DNA of 60,734 nucleotides, from the NCBI GenBank assembly GCA_036985715.1, contig BTQE01000004.1, positions 1 to 60,734 on the forward strand, written 5' to 3'. Source of the stretch: Rhodothermia bacterium (GTDB lineage Bacteria; Bacteroidota; Rhodothermia; Rhodothermales; UBA10348). The notes below the pieces were generated by a model, which was not told the DNA's origin, did no database searches, and saw only the letters and a list, made by a program, of their open reading frames with translations. The position numbers and the translations under genes are program-made. The first letter of the stretch is position 1, and every line of letters starts with the position of its first letter. Below, one piece after another: positions 53,564 through 60,734 of the stretch.

Positions 53564-53722
53564 ATGAGTAACACATACGACGCGATACTAATCGGCGGCG
53601 GCATTATGGGATGCTGCACTGCCCACGAATTGGGTCAGCGCGGATTAAGCGTCGCCGTCGTGGAGAAAGGACGTATCGGCGAAGGGCCGACGGGCGATTA
53701 AGCAGCCATCATTCGTCAATGA
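53564..53722 (+). pseudogene. Stub of an FAD-dependent (DAO-family) oxidoreductase: N-terminal Rossmann motif only, with in-frame stops
   Basis: 'MSNTYDAILIGGGIMGCCTAHELGQRGLSVAVVEKGRIGEGPTGD*AAIIRQ*'. This shows the GxGxxG dinucleotide fold and then TAA (53699-53701) and TGA (53720-53722). I could not follow any continuation in any frame. Confidence 0.6.
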
Positions 53723-55095: not shown

Positions 55096-55311
55096 ATGTC
55101 AGTACAGTCTGCCCTTGATTTTGTGGGAAAGGTCCGCGAGGACAAAAGCTTAAGCGAAAAAGTTCGTGAGCTCGCAACGGATACAGAACTTCAAGCGGTA
55201 GTTGATCTTGCTCGGAGAGAAGGATATTCGATTTCGGAAGGTGATCTTCGTGAGGCCTTCAAGCATGACTGGGCCATGCGATGGTTCAGACACACAGGGT
55301 CGTCAAGTTGA
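55096..55311 (+). CDS. Nif11-domain small protein (possible Nif11-type RiPP leader/precursor)
   Basis: The 71-aa 'MSVQSALDFVGKVREDKSLSEKVRELATDTELQAVVDLARREGYSISEGDLREAF-KHDWAMRWFRHTGSSS' fits the Nif11 pattern (M-S..F..KV..D..L..K.....vv.lA.e.Gy.i). The track ORF starts 34 codons too early. Confidence 0.65.
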   Translation: MSVQSALDFVGKVREDKSLSEKVRELATDTELQAVVDLARREGYSISEGDLREAFKHDWAMRWFRHTGSSS

Positions 55312-56400
55312 CGGACGGAAATCGTGCTGGGTTGGAGTCGGAGATACCCAGGAGTGAAGAAATCCGAGATAGGCTTTTGCTTCTGGCCGACGATCTTGAT
55401 TCAGATTTACTTTCACGTGGTTTAATGTTCGAGCAAACACTCCAAACTGATTCCACTTCTTCGTCAGAGATTCCAGCAGTAACGCACTCGGCCATTTTTC
55501 CTGCACATTTGGCGGACCGATATGCCCTGGCCAATCGAGAAGCATCTGACCTTTTTTCTCGTCACAGTGGCCGAGTTCGATGAGCCGCTGCAACAGATGT
55601 TTCCACCGGTCTCTTACATTTGGCCCATCACTAATGAAGTACTCGAGACCGATTTGAGGATAAATCACGGGACCGACGTCTAGATCGATGCGAATATCGT
55701 CGCAGCATATTTTTCCAACGCTGATCAACTCAGCACACTCATCCGAATTCCCGGTCCACTCTATCCGCTCCAGAAAAGGAAGAATGTTGTCGGCATGAAT
55801 CCGTTGGATGTTCACTCTTAGAGCGTCCATGGTTCGAGAAAGCATAATGCCGACATGAAGCAGCCGGGCGCCGTTGGGAAGTGAGCGGAAACACGATTTC
55901 AGATTTTTGAATACGTATTCAGAAAGAGGTGCTCCGTGAAGTCGACGTACGATCGTTTCGATGATCGCTGGACTCTTCTCAGCACTGAATGAGGACGGAC
56001 TTATCCCGATGAACAGGGACGGAAGAGCAGAGTCCAATGTGTCGTCAAGGTCATATTCCAGCCACAGTTCATCAATATGGTCGTGAATAAGTGAGGAAGG
56101 ATCCGTCCAGTCGGCACAATAAGATTTAAGTCTGTGCCAGGCCTCGTTATCGAAAGCAGGGCCATTGGCGCGAGATAAATACTCTGAAAATATCCTGTCC
56201 TCTCCTTCCTTTTGGAGTATAGCTTGAAAAAAATCGACGCGATCATTCTTCGGGTCCAATCGACATTCAAATCCAAGGCGGGAAACGTCTCCAAAATGGG
56301 CTGCGGCGGCGAAGAGCTTTTCTACCGATTCGTCGGAAAAAATAGGACCGTGTAGGTGCGGCCTCAGAATCTCTAGTGAGTCACGAATCAGAGCAGACAT
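55303..56400 (-). CDS. Orphan 365-aa protein, function unknown (speculative: ABBA-fold prenyltransferase-like)
   Basis: Clean ORF with no cofactor motif I recognise. It has five spaced beta-hairpin-like segments: 'LGFECRLDPKNDRVDFF', 'LWLEYDLDD..LFIGIS', 'LLHVGIMLSRTMDALRVNIQRI', 'IRIDLDVGPVIYPQIGLEYFI' and 'VKVNLNQDRRPEAKAYLGF'. Confidence 0.7.
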   Translation of the reverse strand: MSALIRDSLEILRPHLHGPIFSDESVEKLFAAAAHFGDVSRLGFECRLDPKNDRVDFFQAILQKEGEDRIFSEYLSRANGPAFDNEAWHRLKSYCADWTDPSSLIHDHIDELWLEYDLDDTLDSALPSLFIGISPSSFSAEKSPAIIETIVRRLHGAPLSEYVFKNLKSCFRSLPNGARLLHVGIMLSRTMDALRVNIQRIHADNILPFLERIEWTGNSDECAELISVGKICCDDIRIDLDVGPVIYPQIGLEYFISDGPNVRDRWKHLLQRLIELGHCDEKKGQMLLDWPGHIGPPNVQEKWPSALLLESLTKKWNQFGVFARTLNHVKVNLNQDRRPEAKAYLGFLHSWVSPTPTQHDFRPST

Positions 56401-56758
56401 GAGGTCGTGCGAATTTATCTCTGCAAGAGGAGCAAATACCTAAAATCGATAATGCTGAAGCAAGGACAATCGAGTCGATAGAGATGTTTCAGAAATCTAA
56501 TTTACGGTTCAAGTCCAGAAGCTGTTATCGGAGAGAGATAACGAGCGAACTTGTTTCACGGCCCGAATCACTCAGGCTTCGGATTCTCGAAAAATCGACC
56601 TGTCGTGGGTATAGAAAACCGTGGATCTACTCTACGAAGAGTAATTCCTGACGACGGAAAAGACTTTGATGCAACCTGGTCCCTGAACTGGAACTCTACA
56701 GGGCGTGCGAGCTTATCGATGTTTCGGTAGGATGTAGTCGGAAATTCGTTTTCTGTAC

Positions 56759-56941
56759 TTATCCAGAAAAATCGTTCTTACCGTTCCGATCCCCTTGATG
56801 AAAATCCCAATTCCAGTTTCCTAGGTCACCCCAGCTACCGGCACCGGAAAAATTCGTGATGTTTCCTACACGAGTGATTTGTTCGATATTCCCGTACGCC
56901 TGCAACTTTGGGCTACTGTATTTCTTCTTCATATTTTCCAT
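56759..56941 (-). CDS. Candidate RiPP precursor peptide (lasso-type leader motif, W/N/G/D-rich core)
   Basis: 'MENMKKKYSSPKLQAYGNIEQITR|VGNITNFSGAGSWGDLGNWNWDFHQGDRNGKNDFSG'. Y8-x2-P11-x-L13-x3-G17-x5-T23-x matches YxxPxLx3Gx5Tx exactly. AGGAG lies 3 nt upstream of the ATG, and the gene sits 291 bp downstream of a PqqD-like ORF. Confidence 0.6.
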   Translation of the reverse strand: MENMKKKYSSPKLQAYGNIEQITRVGNITNFSGAGSWGDLGNWNWDFHQGDRNGKNDFSG

Positions 56942-57232
56942 TCTCTCCTAATCAGATCAAAGCTATTTAAACGGTCAGATGCAGTAAAACACCTGGTGTG
57001 AGGGAATAATCCATAACGAAATGGGGGCTGCTCATCTGGGATTTTCAGTCCGATGCATGCACACATACACGTGGGTATATACGAATACGTTAAAAATCGG
57101 CCGAATCGTGAGCGGAAGTGCTATTTCCAATCCATGAACGCGCGGTGTAGCAATAAATTTTTCGAATTGCTACCCACTAATGACCCAGACTGCCATCTTG
57201 GCAGTAATAATCCACCTGTCTAGAGCCGTCGA

Positions 57233-57544
57233 TTATTCTGTCTCAGGAAGGGTTATGACTCGAATTAGGCCTCCCTCAGAGAGAGAGTCCAAAAAGGACC
57301 GTACATCTTTTTCAAGCCGTTCCGATTCGACGTCAAACTTTTCAAACAGTAAATCAAAGGAATATTAAATTGTGAGCTGGGTCGTCAATGCGTTCCACAT
57401 TTCAGCACCCACATCATCCAGCCCGAAATATGTACCGTCATTCATATTATAGAGAACGTACTCGTCGCCGATCTTCTGCGAGAGCACATTCTCAGCAACT
57501 GATACTTTCAGATTGAACAGAGAGTCCATCAGAATCATTGTCAT
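57233..57544 (-). pseudogene. PqqD-family / RiPP recognition element (RRE) ORF interrupted by an in-frame TAA (57365-57367)
   Basis: Hand translation gives 'MTMILMDSLFNLKVSVAENVLSQKIGDEYVLYNMNDGTYFGLDDVGAEMWNALTTQLTI*YSFDLLFEKFDVESERLEKDVRSFLDSLSEGGLIRVITLPETE*'. Both halves together fit the PqqD pattern (..de.vl.n...g.y..Ln..g..iW..l ... y.v....l..Dv..fl..L...GLi). Each half is under 60 aa, so neither appears in the ORF track. Confidence 0.65.
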
Positions 57545-57781
57545 TTCGAGAAAAAATCTTGTCGGTTCAGCAAAGGGCAGAATGTCTCCAGTCCTTCAAT
57601 TACGAAAAATAATTTGAAAAACGGGTTCCTTTGGCGAACAGATTCGACTCCGGATAAGCCTCCAGGGCATAGTTTTTGAGAAACAGAGGTTCACCGAGCG
57701 ACGACGAATCTACGCGGATTAGTAAGACGGCGTACCCGATCCCACGATGCATCAACGCACACGACAAATTTAAACCTACAG

Positions 57782-59629
57782 ATGAAACAGGTTGGGACGA
57801 TCTCGGGAATTGTTGCGTCGAACGCTGAAACGCGGCCGAATGGGAACGCAGTACTTTCTCTCAAAAGCCATGCCCTGACGTACGAAGCACTGTTCGAACA
57901 CATTTCGGACACCGTAAGTGCACTAAACGCAATTGGCCTAACCCGAAATGATCGGCTAGCAGTTGTTCTTCCAAATGGACCCGAAATGGCCACTGCGTTT
58001 TGTGCTATTTCATCCGGATTTTCCTGTGCCCCGCTGAATCCATCATTCCAGGCAACCGAATTTGACTTCTATCTGTCCGACCTAAAAGCGAAAGCAGTAA
58101 TCGTACAGGCCGGATTCGACTCTCCGGTGCGCGACGTCGCAACGAGATTGGGCGTGTCCGTACTCGAACTTCATCCAGAATCGTCCCGTTCAGGTCTTTT
58201 TTCCTTGAGTCACGAAATCGAAACACTCAAGAAACGCGATCCTCCCGATTTTGCTGGACCATTAGACGAAGCTCTCGTTCTGCATACTTCGGGTACTACA
58301 TCTCGACCCAAATTAGTACCGCTTTCGCACGGAAACCTGGTTGCCTCGGCTGTAAATATATCCGAATCACTGGCGCTATCTGATCGAGACATATGCATGA
58401 ATGTGATGCCACTTTTTCACATTCACGGATTGATGGCATGCGTTCTGGCATCGTTTCAATCTGGCGCCAGCGTTGTCTGTACGCCAGGATTCTCTGCACC
58501 GTCATTTCTAGAGCAGCTTTCGAGGACCGGTGCTACGTGGTACAGCGCTGTTCCCACGATGCATCAGGCCATCGTTGGACGGGTTCAAGCTAATCCGTCT
58601 TCGACCAACGCAATCAATCTTCGATTTATTCGATCGTCTTCTGCTTCGCTTCCTCCTACGGTTATGAGTGACCTCGAGCAGGCATTCGGGGTTCCTGTGA
58701 TAGAATCATACGGGATGACCGAAGCGTCCCATCAGATGGCTAGTAACCCATTACCTCCACTTCAGCGGAAGCCAGGCACGGTCGGTCTCGCAGCAGGTCC
58801 CGAAGTGTCTGTCATGGATGAAGACGGTGTCATTGTAGGGGCCGATCAGGTTGGGGAGATCGTCATTCGAGGCAATAATGTGACAGTAGGATACGCGGGG
58901 AATCCCCAGGCAAATGCAGCGGCATTTACAAACGGTTGGTTTCGCACAGGGGATCAGGGATATCTGGATGAAGATGGGTATCTAACGATCACAGGTCGAC
59001 TGAAAGAGATTATCAATCGAGGCGGCGAGAAGATTTCTCCGAGGGAGATCGACGAGGTGCTGCTGGCGCATCCGTCTGTTCGTCAGGCCGTTACTTTTGC
59101 ATTACCAGATCAGAACACGGGTGAGGAAGTTGCTGCTGCGGTAGTTCTTGAGGCGGGTAACAAAGTTGGTGAGCGAGAACTTCAGGATTTCGTCGCGGAA
59201 AGACTGGTCGACTTCAAGATTCCTCGCCGGGTTGTTTTTCTAGATGAGATTCCCAAAGGACCAACTGGAAAGCTGAGGAGGATCGGCCTCTCGGATCAGC
59301 TAGATATTCGGGGCGAACTTCCGCGCGAAAGTTTAAACGTCCGAGTAGGGGACACCGGAGATCCCGATACTGACACGGAGAAAGCTATGATAGCGATCTG
59401 GAAAAACGTGCTGAAGCTCGAACAAATCGGCCTGGATGACAGCTATCTGAGTCTGGGCGGTGATTCGATCCTTGTCGCACAGATACTTAATCGCGTAGAA
59501 AGCGTACTAGGAGTTCGACTATCGATCATTGATTTTTTTGGTTTGGCGACTGTTCGGAGGCTCTCAAAAAGAGTCGATGAGATCGCAAACGACGCCCGTG
59601 ATTCTGCTCAAACTGAGCTGGTCTCCTAG
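57782..59629 (+). CDS. ANL-superfamily adenylating enzyme fused to a phosphopantetheine carrier domain (A-T didomain)
   Basis: 'LHTSGTTSRPK', 'YGMTE', 'WFRTGD', 'GRLKEIINRGGEKISPREID' and 'PKGPTGKLRR', then the carrier motif 'LSLGGDSILVAQIL'. The N-terminal half resembles oxalate/medium-chain acyl-CoA ligase-type enzymes. Confidence 0.85.
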   Translation: MKQVGTISGIVASNAETRPNGNAVLSLKSHALTYEALFEHISDTVSALNAIGLTRNDRLAVVLPNGPEMATAFCAISSGFSCAPLNPSFQATEFDFYLSDLKAKAVIVQAGFDSPVRDVATRLGVSVLELHPESSRSGLFSLSHEIETLKKRDPPDFAGPLDEALVLHTSGTTSRPKLVPLSHGNLVASAVNISESLALSDRDICMNVMPLFHIHGLMACVLASFQSGASVVCTPGFSAPSFLEQLSRTGATWYSAVPTMHQAIVGRVQANPSSTNAINLRFIRSSSASLPPTVMSDLEQAFGVPVIESYGMTEASHQMASNPLPPLQRKPGTVGLAAGPEVSVMDEDGVIVGADQVGEIVIRGNNVTVGYAGNPQANAAAFTNGWFRTGDQGYLDEDGYLTITGRLKEIINRGGEKISPREIDEVLLAHPSVRQAVTFALPDQNTGEEVAAAVVLEAGNKVGERELQDFVAERLVDFKIPRRVVFLDEIPKGPTGKLRRIGLSDQLDIRGELPRESLNVRVGDTGDPDTDTEKAMIAIWKNVLKLEQIGLDDSYLSLGGDSILVAQILNRVESVLGVRLSIIDFFGLATVRRLSKRVDEIANDARDSAQTELVS

Positions 59630-59870: not shown

Positions 59871-60734
59871 ATGAACGAAGCTTCCATTCCCGGTATTATC
59901 AAGACGCATGCGGAACAGAGGCCGGATAATCTGGCCATCCTGTCGATCAACAGAGCACCGATGACGTATGGCCGCCTTCAGAGGCAGACGTCAGCCGTCG
60001 TTGGTATTCTGAACGGGCTAAACACAGGGAGAGGAGACCGCGTTGCAGTTGTTGTTCCGAGCGGTCCCGAGATGGCAACGGCATTTCTGACTATCTCTTC
60101 GGGAGCCACTTCCGTACCACTGAATCCGGCGCTTAAACGGTCTGAGTTCGATTCATATCTCTCCGATCTTGACACCAGAGTAGTGGTCATTCAGTCTGGA
60201 TTTGATTCGCCAATTCGAGACGTCGCGAAGGAGCGAAATATTCCAATATTGGATCTAATTCCCGACGCTGGTATTTCTGGTGTTTTCGAGTTGATGCTAA
60301 ATGGAGAGATACTTTCGTCGGAGAATTCGGCCCCTAGAGTTTATTCGAAGCCCGAGGACGTCGCCATGATCCTCTACACATCGGGCACGACCGCTCAGCC
60401 GAAGAGAGTGCCAATAGGGCACTTCCATTTATACAAGTCTGCGGAAGCGAGGATTCAGATATTGTCGCTCAGTGAAAAGGATCGCTGCCTGAACGTGATG
60501 CCGTATTTTCATGCTCACGCCCTCAGAACTTGTGTCCTGACCACTATAAAGGCAGGAGGAAGCGTGTTTTGTACAAACGGATTTTCACCTTCTTCATTTT
60601 TCGAAATCCTGGCGTTGTCGCAGGCTTCTTGGTATAGCGCGGTGCCAACCATTTTTATGACCATTCTGGCGCGAGCGGCAAATTCAGAGATGGTCGAAAA
60701 GCACCCGCACCTCAGATTTATTCGGTCAACCTCA
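59871..60734 (+). CDS. Second, paralogous ANL adenylating enzyme (3' end beyond the window)
   Basis: Not in the track because it has no stop codon. ATG 59871 stays open for 288 codons to the window edge. 'MNEASIPGIIKTHAEQRPDN...VVVPSGPEMATAFLTISSGATSVPLNPALKRSEFDSYLSDL...ILYTSGTTAQPK...' is collinear with 57782..59629. Confidence 0.8.
   Translation, partial: MNEASIPGIIKTHAEQRPDNLAILSINRAPMTYGRLQRQTSAVVGILNGLNTGRGDRVAVVVPSGPEMATAFLTISSGATSVPLNPALKRSEFDSYLSDLDTRVVVIQSGFDSPIRDVAKERNIPILDLIPDAGISGVFELMLNGEILSSENSAPRVYSKPEDVAMILYTSGTTAQPKRVPIGHFHLYKSAEARIQILSLSEKDRCLNVMPYFHAHALRTCVLTTIKAGGSVFCTNGFSPSSFFEILALSQASWYSAVPTIFMTILARAANSEMVEKHPHLRFIRSTS

Follow-up and report, generated by a model that had tools for sequence, protein, structure and literature searches.

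The closest described relatives of the gene presented here are the lasso B1 proteins TbiB1 (5V1U/5V1V) and TfuB1 (6JX3), two RiPP recognition elements (RREs) whose structures have been solved with their leaders. Further relatives detectable by sequence are PbaB1 (9X90) and LppB (9X8Z), the RREs of a lasso and a linear polyphosphorylated peptide (LPP) system of Bacillota. In PbaB1, the leader motif [Y/W]xxPx[L/V] occupies a hydrophobic cleft bounded by strand beta-4 and helices alpha-1 to alpha-3, where it is contacted by Y38, Y39, N40, L41, I44, I48, L65, Y69, V71, E75, Q79, F83, L87 and L92, with F83 separating two pockets (PMC13381572). In the LPP system, a lasso-type RRE and a YxxP leader occur without a macrolactam cyclase and the product is linear; the hallmarks of an LPP cluster are the genes for an SpI-type peptidase, an HprK-like kinase, an NTP transferase and a transporter (PMC13381572).

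The gene described in the present study lies near the end of a 60.7-kb stretch of DNA, the whole of which was analysed and is called the window hereafter. It shares the domain and the fold of TbiB1 and TfuB1, and the neighbouring precursor bears the same YxxPxL leader motif; in contrast to those systems, the gene is cut at codon 60, no B2 protease or cyclase is present in the window, and the precursor core, counted from Thr(-2), has no acidic residue at positions 7-9. The LPP system provides a published precedent for a lasso-type RRE in a cyclase-less pathway. However, the combination of SpI-type peptidase and HprK-like kinase that marks an LPP-type RRE cluster is incomplete here, since no HprK homologue occurs in the window, and the partner of the RRE is instead an ABBA prenyltransferase-like protein of 365 aa. 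The cyanobacterial lasso clusters (NF033528) share with the window a homologue of this 365-aa protein, a PqqD protein, a Nif11 protein and a lasso_cyano-like leader, whereas the host of the window is a marine, Rhodothermales-like bacterium, only four genes are retained and the RRE is broken. Herein, we propose as the probable explanation that a real and recent CAA>TAA nonsense mutation has inactivated a lasso-B1-type RRE gene at this locus, leaving the precursor gene and the prenyltransferase-like gene intact without their recognition protein. The features concerned are the following.

57233..57544, minus strand: lasso-B1-type PqqD/RRE gene, interrupted (59 codons, TAA, 43 codons, terminal TAA), recognised from its translation, PF05402, NF033536, TbiB1, AF2 and Foldseek
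57368..57544, minus strand: N-half, codons 1-59, with strands 12-16, 20-25, 28-33 and 38-42 and helix 1 (44-55), from PF05402 and AF2
57374..57376, minus strand: codon 57, CTC (Leu), which is Pro (CCC/CCG) in every relative; a C>T change specific to the window, located 8 nt upstream of the stop
57365..57367, minus strand: premature stop TAA (codon 60), with T as the next base; it falls at the start of helix 2
57236..57364, minus strand: C-half, codons 61-103, with helix 2, helix 3 and the last strand
56759..56941, minus strand: 60-aa precursor peptide, intact, with the leader motif YSSPKLQAYGNIEQIT (YxxPxLxxxGxxxxxT)
55303..56400, minus strand: 365-aa ABBA aromatic-prenyltransferase-like protein, intact, from AF2 and Foldseek
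55096..55311, plus strand: Nif11-like small protein (TIGR03798, 39 bits), converging on the 365-aa gene
57782..59629, plus strand: divergent acyl-CoA-ligase-type adenylation enzyme with a fused carrier domain (A-T)
59871..60734, plus strand: second adenylation-type gene (PF00501, 138.6 bits), cut by the contig end and open at its 3' side

Translation of the minus strand from 57544 to 57233 gives MTMILMDSLFNLKVSVAENVLSQKIGDEYVLYNMNDGTYFGLDDVGAEMWNALTTQLTI*YSFDLLFEKFDVESERLEKDVRSFLDSLSEGGLIRVITLPETE*, with both parts in the same frame and the terminal TAA at 57235..57233. The preliminary description of this DNA, which had been made from the letters and a list of open reading frames, reported halves of 59 and 43 aa split by a TAA at 57365-57367 and quoted a peptide string from each; re-translation agrees with the division, and both strings are present in the translation. 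It had also stated that a 60-aa cutoff for open reading frames hides the key recognition component, and indeed the N-half, at 59 aa, falls one residue below that cutoff. Because of the TAA at codon 60, no uninterrupted frame able to give the whole PqqD/RRE domain exists here. The N-half is the sole part of the RRE gene that would be translated; the C-half is still recognisable as PqqD, yet untranslated. Thus, a short-ORF cutoff and an in-frame stop have jointly hidden a gene that marks a peptide natural-product locus, and such a gene is recovered by pseudogene-aware calling.

The identity of the joined product was examined at the levels of sequence and predicted fold. When the stop is written as X, the translation matches the Pfam PqqD family (PF05402) end to end, over profile positions 1-67 of 67, with 53.7 bits (E 2.7e-14) against a gathering score of 23.4, which is exceeded even by each half alone (24.8 bits for the N-half over profile positions 1-28, and 26.2 bits for the C-half over positions 38-67). 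The best NCBIfam family is NF033536 (lasso_PqqD_Bac) with 53.9 bits over positions 6-88 of 88, a score below the family cutoff of 80; NF033530 gives 32.4 bits, likewise below its cutoff of 70. Among the solved structures, TbiB1 is the best sequence match (E 1e-10, 32-34% identity), and its alignment is gapless over residues 15-93, running across the stop; PbaB1 (E 3.5e-6) and LppB (E 6.5e-4) are the next relatives by sequence. For folding, the TAA was read as Gln, the residue found in two orthologues, and the query was aligned with five relatives. The AF2 model of this read-through product (mean pLDDT 85.9, pTM 0.76) contains strands at residues 12-16, 20-25, 28-33, 38-42 and 94-98 and helices at 44-55, 59-69 and 74-90, and has the three-stranded sheet and three helices of a winged helix-turn-helix. 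In a Foldseek comparison with the PDB, the six best matches of this model were complexes of TbiB1 or TfuB1 with leader (TM 0.83-0.88 on the target, rmsd 1.4-1.8 A), followed by RRE domains of other RiPP enzymes. Given the Pfam and NCBIfam matches, the TbiB1 alignment, the AF2 model and the Foldseek matches, the assignment of an RRE domain is secure, and its closest relatives are lasso-type B1 proteins. The proposal that one TAA splits a full-length PqqD-like winged helix, for which a Pfam search with the stop masked and an AlphaFold comparison with RRE domains had been suggested as checks, is therefore borne out, and the interrupted gene is a genuine discrete RRE of the lasso-B1 type.

The position of the stop, in the first turn of helix 2 of the AF2 model, bears directly on what the shortened protein could do. 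The PbaB1 contacts were transferred to the RRE of the window through the sequence alignment with solved structures. Six of the 14 mapped contacts (Y39, F40, G41, L42, V45 and M49) precede the stop, and the other eight (L66, F70, V72, R76, D80, F84, L88 and L93) follow it, among them F84, which corresponds to the conserved Phe dividing the two pockets. What would be left of the protein still has the edge of the sheet with which the leader pairs, but not helices 2 and 3. Since most of the hydrophobic cleft around the leader is built from these two helices, the 59-aa product, judged from the homologous structures, should not bind the precursor leader. We infer that the function of the cassette depends on the RRE. 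In the mechanism we propose, the intact RRE would bind YxxPxL in the leader of the adjacent precursor and present the peptide to the processing enzymes. A recent point mutation in this population, most simply from CAA (Gln) to TAA at codon 60, would end translation after the beta-sheet and helix 1, the product lacking helices 2 and 3 would fail to bind the precursor, and the RRE gene would thereby have become a fresh pseudogene or null allele.

The stop is peculiar to the window. Three orthologous proteins (P0001-P0003; 83, 63 and 67% identity) are all uninterrupted, and their DNA reads CGA (Arg), CAG (Gln) and CAG (Gln), respectively, in the stop column. When only the RRE gene was used as the query of a word search, eight more runs came up, drawn from five other studies and mainly from marine sediment; their contigs are about 90% identical to the window. 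Plus-strand position 57367 is G in every one of these contigs that covers the site, corresponding to C as the first base of the codon. Codon 60 is CGA in X4, X6, X7, X8 and one X11 contig, where 57366 is changed as well, and also in X5 when read through the loose ends of its contig; it is CAA in X9, X10 and the other X11 contig, where 57366 is unchanged. A single C>T transition separates CAA from TAA. Thus, the comparison with orthologous loci that had been called for in the preliminary description shows a sense codon (CGA, CAG or CAA) at the TAA site in all loci examined. In our local survey of all fetched loci, the PqqD homologue is a single uninterrupted ORF in 21 of the 21 other loci, and the split form is confined to the window and its Logan twin. 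A profile scan of metagenome contigs with the PqqD alignment returned only distant relatives and, once more, locus L002.

Two other window-specific changes lie close to the stop. At codon 57, plus-strand position 57375 is changed from A to G in all contigs of the other runs that cover it. Codon 61 is TAT in the window and has C as its first base in locus L001 and in the eight runs (CAT>TAT, His61Tyr), with plus-strand 57364 changed from A to G in all contigs covering that position. Counting the stop at codon 60 together with Pro57Leu and His61Tyr, three C>T changes peculiar to the window fall within 12 nt on the minus strand (57364-57376). Local hypermutation was considered for this cluster and set aside, three differences in 12 nt being not clearly beyond chance against CAA-type relatives with a divergence of about 10%.

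The rest of the cassette provides the context in which the loss of the RRE has to be read. The precursor ORF starts 291 nt downstream of the RRE gene on the same strand and encodes MENMKKKYSSPKLQAYGNIEQITRVGNITNFSGAGSWGDLGNWNWDFHQGDRNGKNDFSG, with an exact YxxPxLxxxGxxxxxT leader; the 60-aa peptide is the presumed ligand of the RRE. Its motif, YSSPKL, conforms to [Y/W]xxPx[L/V] and is kept in L001 and L002. Against NF033528 (lasso_cyano), the precursor scores 32.4 bits over the leader part only, just under the cutoff of 33, and in this it differs from the cyanobacterial lasso precursors. It is conserved in L001, L002 and L005 (dN/dS 0.24-0.26). The core is not one in which a 7-9-residue macrolactam would be expected, as the sequence after the conserved ...EQIT-R is VGNITNFSG and positions 7-9 are non-acidic; a conserved SGxGSWG[DE] lies deeper in the core, so that an unusual cleavage site is conceivable. 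As side observations, the internal SGxGSWG[DE] is common to the precursors of the cut-down family, and L005 has YSST in place of YSSP in its leader. The precursors of the window, L001, L002, L005, L006, L008 and L009 all end with an aromatic residue followed within two positions by Ser or Thr (for example DFSG, DFS, NYYS, TDFS, QYAS and NYTT), in cut-down and cyanobacterial loci alike.

The 365-aa protein has no match in Pfam or NCBIfam. Its AF2 model (pLDDT 88.8, pTM 0.88) gave ABBA prenyltransferases as all of the best 50 Foldseek matches in the PDB, with E values down to 1.8e-6 and TM about 0.5, including PriB, 5-DMATS, IptA, CymD, PatF and PagF. From this likeness, which is at the level of the fold only, the protein is presumed to be the modifying enzyme. 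Its dN/dS is 0.21 against L005, and so both the precursor and the 365-aa gene are under purifying selection (dN/dS 0.21-0.26). In L005-L009, and in most genome loci whose surroundings are long enough to tell, a Nif11 gene adjoins the 365-aa homologue. The A-T gene is 81% identical (BLASTP) to that of L001, where it abuts the PqqD gene. Among all six frames of the 60.7-kb window, whose contig end lies only 3.2 kb from the RRE gene, no homologue of a B2 (transglutaminase-like) protease or of a C (Asn-synthase-like) cyclase was found, an absence that applies to the window alone; homologues of an HprK-like kinase, a methyltransferase and a P450 were likewise absent from the window. The candidate cluster of the preliminary description is hence a cut-down cassette, with neither cyclase nor protease in the window, and not a canonical lasso cluster. 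The order of PqqD and precursor is kept in L001, L002 and L003, and L002 runs into the start of the 365-aa gene; in L005, the order is precursor, 365-aa gene, Nif11 and then the amidase-side ORF. The RRE therefore heads a cut-down, cyclase-less cassette, whose other members are the genes for the precursor, the 365-aa protein and the Nif11-like protein, and several populations that have diverged from one another nevertheless retain this cassette intact.

Relatives of the 365-aa protein outside its own clade are 25-37% identical and nearly all cyanobacterial; the profile search of genome contigs used a 5-sequence alignment. The cyanobacterial loci with enough context contain a PqqD gene, an Asn-synthase-type cyclase, an HprK-like kinase, a methyltransferase, a P450, a convergent Nif11 gene and a Transglut_core3 protease. 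In two of them, L019 and L027, the lasso-type genes occur as two neighbouring sets, and each locus has two cyclases and two HprK-like kinases. L006 (32-3284 and 7977-13344) has two kinases, two B2 proteases and one cyclase, with an IS66 transposase between the sets.

Three origins of the stop had been offered in the preliminary description, namely a sequencing or assembly error, a recent inactivating mutation, and read-through or a split protein. The second is favoured herein, because the orthologues all have a sense codon, TAA is a normal stop in the window and the C-half has no restart codon. A working RRE might still be made through read-through of the TAA, through termination and reinitiation, or from two halves that assemble, and it is true that both halves are recognisable and in frame, that the remainder of the cassette is intact and that a CTG lies six codons past the stop. 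However, of the 33 long ORFs in the window, seven are terminated by TAA, the conserved FAD-oxidase and amidase genes among them, so the genetic code is standard and reassignment of the stop codon is ruled out. In Escherichia coli, TAA followed by T, as here, is among the most efficient stop contexts. The frame of the C-half contains no ATG or GTG at which translation could restart; its near-cognate starts are limited to a CTG (codon 66) and a TTG (codon 85), both lacking an SD-like or purine-rich stretch upstream, and separate translation of the C-half is therefore implausible and an RRE in two pieces, lacking a start codon for the second, is ruled out. In addition, no relative is split or stopped at this point, so that nothing suggests a selected arrangement, and the split would fall inside the helical bundle of the predicted fold. 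Nor does a second PqqD homologue occur anywhere in the 60.7-kb window. No RNA runs carrying the locus were found. Taken together, the production of a working RRE from this allele is very improbable. The possibility that the TAA is not fixed, having arisen in consensus building or from a (perhaps systematic) read error, or being one allele in a polymorphic population with an intact CAA besides, deserves somewhat more weight and is nevertheless unlikely. The source is a metagenome of modest depth, the sequence of the window itself was found in one run only (X1), both assemblies probably derive from that run, Logan contigs drop rare variants by design, and CAA alleles exist in related populations. 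Against this, the contig of a second assembler (Logan; 19,210 nt, word depth 12) shows 0 differences over 56700-57800, so that two different assemblers give an identical sequence over 1.1 kb, and among the Logan contigs no alternative X1 contig was found at the locus even at 85% likeness. The second assembly, though probably built from the same read set, argues against an assembler artefact. Moreover, a random substitution error would need to dominate roughly 12-fold coverage, and the two further window-specific C>T changes within 12 nt resemble real divergence rather than a single miscall.

A different objection accepts the nonsense mutation as real and holds that it was harmless, the RRE having already become redundant because the prenyltransferase-like enzyme recognises the peptide unaided or because the cassette as a whole is decaying. 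Cyanobactin ABBA prenyltransferases, e.g. PagF, act without a leader. The homologues of cyclase, B2 protease, kinase, methyltransferase and P450 that are absent from the window are present in nearly all context-rich cyanobacterial relatives, and a 45-aa stub of the DAO family 3.5 kb away suggests local gene decay. On the other hand, no relative with the cut-down arrangement has a broken RRE, and the low dN/dS of this gene in pairwise comparisons (0.11-0.22 in four pairs) indicates that it is needed there. A perfect YxxPxL is kept in the precursors of the window, L001 and L002, and the precursor and the 365-aa gene show the purifying selection described above. For these reasons, we regard prior redundancy of the RRE as quite unlikely, and a recent inactivating mutation as the better reading of the lesion.

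The age of the lesion can be gauged from the divergence of the RRE gene, with dN/dS estimated by Nei-Gojobori counts. Between the window and L001, dN/dS is 0.20 upstream of the stop (9 synonymous and 7 non-synonymous changes) and 0.89 downstream of it (4 synonymous and 11 non-synonymous); the contrast lies in the direction that would be expected for relaxed constraint and is not significant (Fisher p = 0.15). In the control pair L002 and L003, of similar divergence, the C-half has a dN/dS of 0.13. Over the whole gene, the pair of window and L001 stands at 0.39, a value driven by the stretch after the stop. When the changes were polarised by eye with L002 and L003, no clear excess appeared on the branch of the window, and the C-half is free of indels and, at 26.2 bits, remains above the Pfam threshold; on these grounds, the mutation is recent when set against the divergence from L001 (dS about 0.22).

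On this reading, the cassette of this MAG is probably non-functional at the recognition step, and studies of the pathway are therefore best begun from the intact alleles of the related sediment populations. The RRE pseudogene itself is a well-documented case in a known family, and the surrounding cassette is the more interesting object. A lineage outside the cyanobacteria has conserved this cyclase-less set of four genes under purifying selection, so that the idea of a linear peptide being prenylated under the guidance of its leader can be put to the test. We tentatively hypothesize, as a possibility that we hold to be less probable than its opposite, that the cut-down cassette, with the adjoining adenylation and carrier genes, might be a working and undescribed RiPP pathway of marine Rhodothermales-like bacteria, derived from a cyanobacterial lasso cluster by loss of the cyclase and the protease, in which the RRE might have been co-opted to hand a linear peptide to the prenyltransferase-like enzyme. 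Should this be true, the TAA allele of the window would represent a naturally occurring null mutant for recognition.

Several minor observations concern the genome around the cassette. The stub mentioned above is a 45-aa ORF at 53564-53701 on the plus strand, with a DAO/FAD-binding N-terminus (PF01266, from precomputed Pfam matches), which stops just after the decarboxylase gene and may be a second decayed gene nearby. An imperfect inverted repeat (11 of 13 positions) links the 5' end of the RRE gene (57508-57520, minus strand, CTGTTCAATCTGA) with the 3' end of the A-T gene (59604-59616, plus strand, CTGCTCAAACTGA), and positions 540-610 of L001 (coverage 2.1) read exactly as a recombinant across this repeat. 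In L001, the A-T gene is co-directional with the PqqD gene and overlaps it, and the first residues of PqqD come from A-T-derived sequence. Homology to the window runs through 57536 in the X4-X8 and X10 contigs and through 57521 in L001. X5-X8 and X10 continue with TTCGAG as the window does, and because these contigs follow the sequence of the window, the arrangement of L001, or its assembly, looks like the odd one out. The aconitase of the window is 88-89% identical to those of 'Bacteroidetes bacterium' MAGs and 75-78% identical to those of Rhodothermales, a likeness from which the host is here called Rhodothermales-like. In two loci with an 88% identical aconitase, L046 (4069-5187) and L045 (4066-5186), genes of the phage-integrase family lie between the histidine kinase and hydantoinase genes, the integrase gene of L046 being split into smaller ORFs. 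The gene order of the aconitase region in both loci differs from that of the window, indicating that this region has been rearranged between close relatives.
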